Of a stretch of DNA of 1,570 bases, positions 619 through 1,570 are shown piece after piece. The stretch comes from Escherichia phage ECO95 1-6-1, in the sequence record OR845833.1; one strand, written 5' to 3'. How positions within the stretch are numbered: position 1 is the first letter of the stretch; each line of letters starts with the position of its first letter. The notes under the pieces are model-generated. The model searched no databases, was not told the origin of the DNA, and saw only the letters and a list, made by a program, of their open reading frames with translations. Both the position numbers and the translations under genes were made by a program.

Positions 619-984
619 ATGGCTGTGCTTCGTACGTTACCGGGCAGAATCAAAACTCTGAACACCCGGCGGGTGAATATTCTGAAGGGTGAACAGCGTC
701 GTGTCAGTGGCAGTGCACGTGTTTCCCTCAAGCGTCATATCTGGCTCAGGGATGCCGGGCAGTGCTGTCTCTGTGGTCGTGTGGTTGACCTCTGTGACAG
801 TGAACTCGATCACCGAATTGCACTTCAGTTCGGTGGTGGTAATGAGGAGACGAATCTCTGGACGCTCTGTACTGAATGCCATCGCCAGAAGTCAGTCAGT
901 GAAACGGCGAGTGGTATGCCGGACCCGACGCTGCCGGAGGTGTCCGGAGGTCATGGCAGGGCAGACGATATCATCGGACTGTGA
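619..984 (+). CDS. HNH endonuclease, phage packaging-associated type (HK97 gp74-like arrangement)
   Basis: 121-aa ORF with ATG 619 preceded by SD GGCGAGGA (605-612); an in-frame TGA at 592-594 excludes a longer N-terminus. Complete HNH / zinc-finger signature: C49-C50-x-C52 (about 763-774), D64-H65 (808-813), N79 (853-855), C84-x2-C87-H88 (868-882). Sits immediately upstream of a repeat-rich non-coding region and a terminase small subunit gene. Confidence 0.9.
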   Translation: MAVLRTLPGRIKTLNTRRVNILKGEQRRVSGSARVSLKRHIWLRDAGQCCLCGRVVDLCDSELDHRIALQFGGGNEETNLWTLCTECHRQKSVSETASGMPDPTLPEVSGGHGRADDIIGL

Positions 985-1045
985 CCCGCCCCGGGGGGGG
1001 ATCATCCGGCGAAAAAACGATCGCCCCGGACACCGCCCCCCGTCT
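985..1045. other. GC-homopolymer-rich tract after the HNH stop; candidate cos nicking region (tentative)
   Basis: CCCGCCCC followed by G8 (985-1000), giving a CCCCGGGG palindromic core. Repeated CGCCCCGG at 987-994 and 1022-1029, plus CGCCCCCCG at 1034-1042. Non-coding, between the HNH endonuclease and the terminase gene. The assignment as cosN is inference only. Confidence 0.2.
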
Positions 1046-1074
1046 CACGCAGAGAAAAAATTCCCGTTTCAGGG

Positions 1075-1200
1075 CAGTTAACATGTTAACTGGCTGCCCG
1101 GGCATTTTTGCGGTTTTTATCTTTATTATTCAGTTTGTTGTGCGGAAAAAATGTTAACAGGCTTTTTCAGCAAATGTTAACCAGGCAGCAGTTAACATTT
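1075..1200. repeat. array of five ATGTTAAC / GTTAACAT motifs including an 18-bp perfect palindrome; putative terminase small-subunit recognition (cosB-like) region
   Basis: Perfect palindrome CAGTTAACATGTTAACTG at 1075-1092. Direct repeat AAATGTTAACAGGC (1149-1162) and AAATGTTAACCAGGC (1172-1186). Inverted repeat AAATGTTAAC (1172-1181) / GTTAACATTT (1191-1200) with a 9-bp spacer. Each copy is flanked by a YRGC-like sequence. All lie in the 290-bp non-coding gap directly upstream of the terminase small subunit start. Confidence 0.45.
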
Positions 1201-1272
1201 GCGGCATGAGACGCCGGGAAAAATGGGCTGAACCATACCCGGCTGAGTGCGTTCTGGACCCGGGAGGAGGCT

Positions 1273-1570
1273 GTGCTGACAACGCAAAAACGAAAATTTG
1301 CGCTGGCGCTCATGTCCGGGAAAAACAAAACAGCGTCAGCCATTGCCGCCGGTTATTCGGCGAAGACCGCCAGGGTTAAAGGCTCGCAGCTGGCAAAAGA
1401 TCCGGAGGTGCTCGCGTTTATAGCCCGTAAACAGTGCGAAACGGTGGAGGTGGATGAGGTTCCTGTTTACCGGCAGAAAAAATCAGAGCAGGAGGATAAA
1501 CCCCGTCGCCGTGAGGCGGCTGCAATACCACAGCCGGACGAAAACAATCCGGAGATGCCACCGCCCGTGG
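1273..1570 (+). CDS. terminase small subunit (Terminase_2 / P27-family N-terminal DNA-binding domain), 3'-partial, GTG start
   Basis: Frame 1 is open from the TGA at 1207-1209 to the window end. GTG at 1273 is preceded by a strong SD GGAGGAGG (1263-1270). Translation VLTTQKRKFALALMSGKNKTASAIAAGYSAKTARVKGSQLAKDPEVLAFIARKQ... matches from memory the conserved N-terminal signature of this terminase small subunit family (LTxKQ..F...AGYS.K.A...GS.LL). Not in the supplied ORF track because it lacks an ATG start and has no stop in the window. Confidence 0.8.
   Translation, partial: MLTTQKRKFALALMSGKNKTASAIAAGYSAKTARVKGSQLAKDPEVLAFIARKQCETVEVDEVPVYRQKKSEQEDKPRRREAAAIPQPDENNPEMPPPV

Follow-up and report, generated by a model that had tools for sequence, protein, structure and literature searches.

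In phage HK97 the HNH protein gp74 stimulates cleavage of the genome end (cos) by the phage terminase (PMC11331095, PMC9410871), and the resulting overhang is a 10-nt 3′ extension (PMC11331095); PMC9410871 prints a 12-nt 3′ extension for HK97 and a 10-nt 5′ one for lambda, apparently swapped. In staphylococcal cos phages an HNH protein is needed, together with the small and large terminase subunits (TerS and TerL), for cos cleavage. For the Stx1-converting phage Lys8385Vzw, PhageTerm analysis of DNA from induced particles gave a cos phage whose cohesive ends are 3′ and whose cos sequence is CGCCCCCCCT (PMC7946995). Here we consider a stretch of 1,570 nucleotides from Escherichia phage ECO95 1-6-1 (OR845833.1), called the window below and always meant at its full length, in which an HNH endonuclease gene and the gene of the small terminase subunit (terS) enclose a repeat-rich gap. 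Our conclusion, which we hold with a probability of about 0.8, is that the window represents the segment where packaging begins in a lambdoid siphophage of the cos type, an E. coli prophage of the group formed by BP-4795, phage 2851 and Lys8385Vzw.

Over positions 443-1570 the window is 97.5-98% identical at the nucleotide level to the Stx-converting phages BP-4795 and 2851 and to many Stx1a and Stx2c phages, while over its full length its identity to chromosomal E. coli prophages reaches 99.4%. Gene order in these phage and prophage records is lysis cassette, (PerC), DUF3950, HNH, terS, the large terminase gene (terL), a protease-capsid fusion (645 aa), a small open reading frame (ORF), portal, and head-tail genes. 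The packaging-initiation region is of an ordinary, documented type that had been sequenced and annotated before, with its ends mapped in a close relative. What we add is the transfer of cos coordinates onto the window, the conservation of the cos core across genera and the description of a lineage-specific repeat insert.

Position of the cohesive end

The sequence-only reading of this DNA had placed the genome end inside the window, and by homology with two phages whose ends are recorded the claim holds. The Lys8385Vzw record (MT225100.1) ends ...GGACACCGCCCCCCCT (last bases ...ACCGCCCCCCCT) and restarts with CTCACGCAGAG, i.e. CTCACGCAGAGAAAAAATTCCCG..., which puts the break between window positions 1043 and 1044; a 51-nt query spanning the cut site is split there in this record only. 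In Acinetobacter phage fLi-Aba03 (MT344105.1) the last 10 nt, CGCCCCCCAT, are annotated as a '3′ cohesive end', with an HNH gene upstream and terS at +73, and a core common to both phages, GGACACCGCCCCCCNT/CNCACGCA..AAAAAATTCCC (the slash marks the cut), flanks that annotated end. When the window and fLi-Aba03 are compared across the cut from -20 to +25, 36 of 45 positions are identical, the single best of 14,974 registers (null 10.8 ± 2.8).

A fainter resemblance extends to HK97, whose record ends ...GGGGGGGGGATCAAATCTTCAAAACCTTTGCCCCAAATGACCGCCGCCAAA with CGCCGCCAAA as its last 10 nt. When the 52 nt left of the cut are compared, none of the other offsets among 5,562 scores as high as the exact register and its -1 neighbour, which give 25-26 identities of 52 against a null of 13 ± 3.2. 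A shared element is the GGGGGGGGATCA box, which we consider, speculatively, a candidate recognition or termination element on the left of the cut. A G-run is also found in Kluyvera, Enterobacter, Buttiauxella, phage FSL SP-016 and fLi-Aba03, and the length of the run is polymorphic among E. coli copies. Judged as part of the whole packaging reading, these comparisons of sequence make it very probable that the genome end lies within the gap, at the position listed in Table 1.

Several points weigh against this reading. The cos ends of Lys8385Vzw come from PhageTerm applied to short reads, and in a relative, rather than from direct end mapping, and the cos coordinates printed for that phage are impossible (50,977-50,953; PMC7946995). 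Aligned locally with gaps allowed, the non-coding gap and the HK97 interval between HNH and terS match only marginally: strict scoring returns only the 12-mer, with a score reached by 33 of 1,000 shuffles, and softer scoring gives z of 1-3. Because of this marginal result the resemblance to HK97 cos should be called real but weak; it should be noted that the register-anchored test and the comparison with fLi-Aba03 are more informative than the gapped alignment. The HNH protein is not significantly similar to gp74 (BLASTP E=0.11; hhalign probability 0.06% with a 19-sequence profile), so the alignment proposed as a check of the sequence-only reading shows two proteins that share families, with no orthology detectable pairwise or by profile. 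Functional equivalence with gp74 therefore rests on position and family, and the role of the window's HNH protein and its close clade is argued by analogy. Nor does TerS match HK97 gp1 (BLASTP E=0.30); it belongs to phrog_641 and PF03592, while gp1 belongs to phrog_5601 and has no Pfam match. Since the two TerS families differ, analogy with the TerS site of HK97 is positional only, and the term 'HK97-type', applied by the sequence-only reading to the whole module, fits TerL, portal, capsid and cos layout and does not fit TerS. Finally, the window's own prophage copy may be non-inducible.

Table 1. Features of the window, with the grounds for each assignment
Feature	Position	Strand	Grounds and remarks
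PerC-family (Pch-like) regulator gene, 3′ part	1-271	+	PF06069, E=3.8e-44; RefSeq annotation at a 99.3% identical locus
Hairpin between A-run and T-run	308-334		RNA fold -14.7 kcal/mol, z = -4.3; 0 of 200 shuffles as stable
DUF3950 / YlcI-YnfO family gene, 74 aa	353-577	-	PF13132, E=9.8e-20; phrog_949; record annotations
HNH endonuclease gene, 121 aa, intact	619-984	+	PF01844, phrog_589; proposed by analogy as accessory nuclease for cos cleavage
GGGGGGGGATCA box, from 51 to 40 nt before the cut (its G-run at 993-1000)	993-1004		Identical 12-mer in HK97 at the same distance (about 38 nt) before the cut
Cohesive end CGCCCCCCGT, predicted 10-nt 3′ overhang	1034-1043		Homology to the ends of Lys8385Vzw, fLi-Aba03 and HK97; top cut 1043/1044, bottom cut 1033/1034
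Right-of-cut box CTCACGCAGAGAAAAAATTCCCG, A-tract at +12 to +17	1044-1066		Near-invariant from E. coli to Buttiauxella
Perfect palindrome, 18 bp, CAGTTAACATGTTAACTG (two ATGTTAAC half-sites)	1075-1092		Corresponds by homology to the stretch from Shine-Dalgarno sequence to start codon of the relatives' terS; no start here
Lineage-specific insert, ~180 bp	1093-1272		E. coli / Stx-phage lineage; proposed from sequence as an expanded TerS-binding (cosB-like) array
Small terminase subunit gene, 5′ part (99 codons)	1273-1570	+	PF03592, E=1.3e-8; phrog_641, E=7.6e-68 over full length

The gap and its repeats

As the HNH ORF ends at 984 and the start of terS is set at the GTG at 1273, the gap covers 985-1272. 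It had been described from the letters as 288 bp of repeat-rich non-coding DNA, a description that stands: the 8-mer ATGTTAAC occurs five times between 1077 and 1198, against 0.04 occurrences expected, and none of 200 shuffles reaches five. Two of the copies form the palindrome of Table 1. The insert begins with an AT-rich stretch (1093-1150) and carries further copies at 1151-1158 (+), 1174-1181 (+) and 1191-1198 (-); a perfect inverted repeat of 12 bp (1170-1181/1191-1202) contains ATGTTAAC copies. Closer to the cut, the box at 1044-1066 overlies the position equivalent to the HK97 TerS site (+15 to +29; PMC11331095) and is, from its sequence, a candidate TerS or bending site. A scan of the gap for promoter and terminator consensus sequences gave nothing above shuffle expectation.

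The insert was found at 3,004 places in 1,276 E. coli genomes, every time intergenic and every time accompanying the module; it is absent in the relatives examined from five other Enterobacterales genera and in fLi-Aba03. A miniature inverted-repeat transposable element (MITE) was considered as its origin and rejected: the insert occurs only with the module, always between genes, and at about as many places as terS. Among 51 distinct copies from E. coli and IMG/VR, variation is concentrated left of the cut (985-1043), including the length of the G-run and overhang positions 1037 and 1042, while 1044-1272 is near-invariant.

Comparison with relatives outside E. coli indicates where the repeats may come from. 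In these Enterobacterales the cos cut lies ~47 nt from the terS ATG, and the start of terS reads ACATGTTAACAGCGCAAAAG within an imperfect palindrome, TGTAAACATGTTAACA, which is invariant in all six sequences while adjacent codons vary synonymously. The copies of the window can themselves be read as terS starts (MLTG... at 1083, MLTG... at 1151 and, in the frame of terS, MLTRQQLTFAA* at 1174), and the true terS start region of the window has drifted to GTGCTGAC. This pattern of sequence suggests serial duplication of the 5′ end of terS, after which the 8-mer would have been retained as a DNA site.

By analogy with lambda cosB and with the +15 to +29 site of HK97, we infer a TerS recognition region that is probably made up of the A-tract box (1044-1066) together with the GTTAAC repeats. 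A further, more tentative proposal is that the TerS site was once a single palindrome over the terS start codon, as it is in the Kluyvera, Enterobacter, Buttiauxella and Salmonella relatives, and was copied into a ~180-bp array of five ATGTTAAC and so uncoupled from translation. To our mind this is possible but doubtful. If it is true, the expanded cosB could give this group of prophages its own packaging specificity, and TerS bound at cos in the relatives would also repress translation of terS.

An equally tentative alternative holds that neither the ATGTTAAC copies nor the insert bind terminase, and that they are either neutral debris from duplication of the terS 5′ end or a region controlling terS translation or transcription. 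Every copy does resemble the relatives' terS start (ATG TTA AC = Met-Leu-Thr), and the copy at 1174 continues in the terS frame as given above; the relatives examined in other Enterobacterales genera need only one palindrome, placed over the start codon; and a search of the gap for the IHF consensus returned no site. Polymorphism avoids the ATGTTAAC positions with marginal support: none of the 16 variable columns among 229 falls within the 38 positions of the copies (51 distinct copies, estimated P ~0.055). Against this alternative, all five copies are identical at 8 of 8 positions while their flanks have diverged past recognition, and the region of the true start has drifted too. Over the 51 distinct copies the insert hardly varies, less than the HNH coding region does, and in fLi-Aba03, whose TerS has a homologous helix-turn-helix, three GTTAAA direct repeats begin from the same +34 position.

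Two observations on the gap stand apart from this question. A small ORF is predicted at 1083-1157 (+), which would encode the hydrophobic 24-aa peptide MLTGCPGIFAVFIFIIQFVVRKKC; its first codon is a remnant of the ancestral terS start codon, and it varies very little among copies. In loci from an Enterobacter metagenome-assembled genome and from Buttiauxella, the interval from the HNH stop to the G-run contains an additional AT-rich block that carries TCAAATGA / CATTTGAAAT repeats (L011 2870-2930, L012 2870-2955, L004 2110-2180). This block, not present in the window, resembles an HK97 block at the same place (Buttiauxella versus HK97 z=3.0, 7 of 500 shuffles).

The HNH gene and the terminase genes

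The HNH gene had been credited with a complete catalytic and zinc-binding motif, and the profile searches agree. The protein matches PF01844 nearly end to end (E=2e-6, profile positions 1-45 of 47) and the PHROG family phrog_589, 'HNH endonuclease', with E=2.7e-42. Its zinc site consists of two CxxC pairs (C49, C52 and C84, C87), its catalytic residues are H65, N79 and H88, and C49/C52, D64-H65, N75/N79 and C84/C87-H88 are invariant across 19-20 homologues of 55-89% identity. In the predicted structure the core, residues 31-100, is confident, with a predicted local distance difference test score (pLDDT) of 74-87, while the overall mean is 65 and the termini are predicted to be disordered. A fold search of this model against the PDB returned HNH domains only, with weak E-values (Cas9 HNH, Cap5, the Geobacter nicking enzyme 4H9D, T4 endonuclease VII, McrA). 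Pfam finds no extra DNA-binding module of the I-HmuI type in the 121 residues, only PF01844 and, below threshold, the related PF14279; NCBIfam has no specific family for HNH, TerS or TerL.

The ORF downstream of the gap is, as had been proposed, the small terminase subunit. It encodes a protein of 187 aa at full length with an N-terminal helix-turn-helix of the Terminase_2 type, and it runs off the window. Three observations fix where the gene starts: the Shine-Dalgarno sequence GGGAGGAGG (1262-1270), an in-frame stop at 1207-1209 and the N-terminus VLTTQKRKFALAL, which aligns with MLTAQKRKFA of relatives. That a large terminase gene should follow was a prediction of the sequence-only reading, and matching phage and prophage records contain terL directly after terS beyond the window, with a 4-nt overlap. 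TerL matches PF03354 (E=2.1e-11), PF20441 (E=1.5e-9) and phrog_9 (E=2.9e-145). Further along the matching phage record, outside the window, are a portal protein (PF04860, E=1.8e-81) and a capsid protein (PF05065, E=5.9e-14) fused to a PF04586 (S78) protease.

The linkage of these elements is close. Across 5,426 complete E. coli genomes there are 2,939 places with the HNH gene, 2,964 with the 5′ part of terS and, as said, 3,004 with the gap insert; with place counts of roughly 1:1:1, HNH, gap and terS travel together. IMG/VR contigs found through TerS have an intact HNH-gap-terS arrangement in 74 of 80 cases, the other six being four cuts at contig ends, one break at window position 996 (an insertion sequence (IS) junction) and one contig with a different HNH 5′ part. 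Order is also kept outside the species: Kluyvera, Enterobacter and Buttiauxella relatives of the HNH gene, at 58-68% identity, are followed by the cos core and terS, and so is the HNH gene of Salmonella phage FSL SP-016. Searches by tblastn with HNH and with TerL return phages of the same genera (Moraxella, Vibrio, Acinetobacter, Burkholderia).

Reportedly, as described by Kala and colleagues in 2014, TerL of the Terminase_1 family (PF03354) and portal and capsid families of the HK97 type accompany packaging HNH proteins. The sequence-only reading had taken the HNH protein for a packaging factor and not a homing endonuclease, and the free-standing gene and the co-occurrence counts support that view. 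Taken together, position and linkage argue for an accessory nuclease of packaging, a role that would follow by analogy with HK97 gp74 and the staphylococcal cos phages.

Other duties for the HNH protein seem improbable. Records label its orthologues 'DNase', 'restriction endonuclease' or 'McrA', there are weak domain-level PADLOC nuclease matches (E ~1e-4 to 1e-5), and EcoKMcrA appears in the fold search, so that it could be thought a late DNase for host DNA or an McrA-like restriction or defence enzyme that neighbours cos by chance. The PADLOC and PDB matches, however, cover only the generic HNH core of far larger proteins, no defence-system partner gene is present, and in every relative examined HNH is strictly linked to cos and to a TerL of phrog_9/PF03354, an association reported for packaging HNH proteins.

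Even less credit is due to the idea of a free-standing homing endonuclease, a selfish mobile gene beside the terminase genes that copies itself into alleles lacking it. The HNH family does include many phage homing enzymes, the orthologue is labelled 'homing endonuclease' in two GenBank records, and gene conversion was raised by Xu and Gupta as one possible role of HNH genes adjacent to cos. Against this, the gene lies outside any intron, intein or interrupted gene, since it is an ORF of its own, with a complete DUF3950 gene on one side and cos/terS on the other; its 121 aa carry the HNH domain with no added DNA-binding domain; and with 2,939 HNH and 2,964 terS places E. coli offers no presence/absence polymorphism. 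Those HNH-less copies that were seen are contig ends or IS-associated deletions that removed the lysis genes as well, and across genera synteny is kept and divergence of HNH tracks that of TerL.

The deletions deserve a remark of their own. In prophages of the PPompW type and in one IMG/VR contig, ISEc20 (IS110 family) sits within the G-run left of cos (~996), with G-runs on both flanks (L007 2546-4004; L082). ISEc20-bearing copies retain cos, terS and terL, while the lysis genes, the HNH gene and the sequence left of 996 are missing together.

Headful (pac) packaging, with the gap as a mere intergenic regulatory region, could be entertained given that the PF03592 N-terminal domain of TerS is found in pac phages too, for example in SPP1-type small terminases, but it is highly unlikely in view of the cos class with 3′ ends that PhageTerm assigned to a phage with a 97.5% identical TerL, the cohesive end annotated in fLi-Aba03 at that same core and the place of TerL in the HK97 cos clade.

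Under the cos reading, the following sequence of events can be proposed. Late transcription, to judge from the gene layout, would run from the lysis genes through the HNH gene and cos into terS-terL. TerS would recognise concatemeric DNA via its N-terminal helix-turn-helix, presumably at sites right of the cut, namely the A-tract box and the GTTAAC repeats at 1077-1198. TerL, with an ATPase and nuclease of HK97 type, would cooperate with the HNH protein in placing two nicks at CGCCCCCCGT, 10 nt from each other, so that the cohesive ends are 3′ extensions of 10 nt; where the cut falls and which type the ends are has been shown for the near-identical phage, and the part given to HNH is drawn from HK97 gp74 and the staphylococcal cos phages. 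Packaging would then proceed rightwards, terS end first, up to the next cos, as the positions of the ends and the precedents of HK97 and lambda suggest.

Surroundings, significance and comparison with known systems

The left part of the window is context outside the packaging module. The PerC-family gene encodes 104 aa and starts ~43 nt upstream of the window; as it substitutes the corresponding phage sequence, homology to BP-4795-type phages begins only at 443. Its product resembles the Pch regulators found in prophages of enterohaemorrhagic E. coli (EHEC). Between the convergent PerC and DUF3950 genes, the hairpin at 308-334 probably serves as an intrinsic terminator for both directions; it was missed by the consensus terminator scan, and a scan of the whole window against Rfam (E<=1) gave no match. 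The DUF3950 and HNH genes run apart from start codons separated by 41 bp. The DUF3950 gene is antisense to late transcription and is kept at the same place in BP-4795 and in E. coli prophages. On the other side, beyond the window, the head genes are of an unusual kind: an S78 prohead protease is fused to an HK97-fold capsid protein (645 aa) encoded upstream of the portal gene (loci L001 12118-17013, L002 12561-17294). The portal region is annotated as two coding sequences in BP-4795 and Lys8385Vzw and as one 'frameshifted' gene of 2.6 kb in RefSeq, and PF04860 matches its first half only.

The value of the result lies mainly in annotation, and no concept is changed by it: cos of a very common E. 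coli prophage packaging module is set at a defined sequence of 10 nt, 1034-1043. Of 5,426 complete E. coli genomes ~1,250 contain the module, some in as many as 7-8 copies, and many Stx1, Stx2a and Stx2c phages carry it too. The gap is without annotation in most database records, which end at the attachment sites. Knowing cos makes it easier to judge which EHEC prophages remain packageable, an example being copies that have ISEc20 in the G-run and lack the HNH and lysis genes. In addition, it offers a defined substrate for asking whether HNH-assisted cos cleavage, established for HK97, extends to Stx phages.

Among described systems, lambda resembles the window in outline. Its cos (cosQ-cosN-cosB, with the gpNu1 R sites) combines a nicking site, several small-terminase sites repeated on the terS side ahead of that gene and a conserved element across the nicking site from them, the last part to be packaged, an arrangement that for the window would be analogous. 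Lambda has 5′ overhangs of 12 nt, needs no HNH protein and carries an IHF site in cosB. Its terminase families (gpNu1/gpA) are different too, whereas the overhang of Lys8385Vzw is a 3′ one of 10 nt and the gap lacks an IHF consensus; the element of the window is not a member of the lambda type of cos. The staphylococcal cos phages phi12 and phiSLT and the nicking enzymes of Geobacter and Geobacillus systems (PDB 4H9D, GVE2) share with the window a small HNH protein beside cos and the terminase genes, 4H9D being a weak match to the window's HNH in sequence (E=0.0026) and in fold. They differ in their distant sequences, other hosts and other TerS families.

HK97 is alike in the order HNH, cos, terS, terL, with the HNH gene immediately upstream of cos on the terS-terL strand, in a 10-nt 3′ overhang (predicted by homology for the window) with CGCC-CC in common, and in the GGGGGGGGATCA box at equal distance from the cut. 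TerL of the window is 23% identical to gp2 (BLASTP E=2e-11), both falling in phrog_9; the portal (PF04860) and capsid (PF05065) families are shared; and HNH and gp74 are both PF01844 and both match phrog_589, 144, 5956 and 333. The best PHROG family is nevertheless different, phrog_2323 for gp74 and phrog_589 for the window's HNH, with overlap through secondary matches. The distance from cos to the terS start is 229 nt in the window versus 49 nt in HK97, and gene order differs after terL, the window-type protease being fused to the capsid protein and its gene lying ahead of the portal gene.

Similar to the window, too, is fLi-Aba03, with an HNH protein (34% identical) encoded upstream of cos, a 52% identical TerL, a homologous TerS of the Terminase_2 type and GTTAA repeats starting at +34. 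It differs in that these are GTTAAA repeats, three in direct orientation at a spacing of about one helical turn, with no 180-bp insert, that terS begins at +73, that an extra small ORF stands between HNH and cos, and that portal, protease and capsid follow in conventional order.

The nearest match is Lys8385Vzw, which with BP-4795 and phage 2851 belongs to Marienburgvirus and allies. Across this group the module is ~97-98% identical in nucleotides, HNH 94-97% and TerL 97.5% in amino acids (HNH 94% and TerL 97.5% for Lys8385Vzw itself). Upstream of 443 the window has a PerC-family gene in place of phage sequences, its G-run is one base longer than that of Lys8385Vzw, and the cohesive ends of the two show one difference, CGCCCCCCGT in the window versus CGCCCCCCCT. 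The gap, the ATGTTAAC copies and the cos core are the same in the window and in this group.

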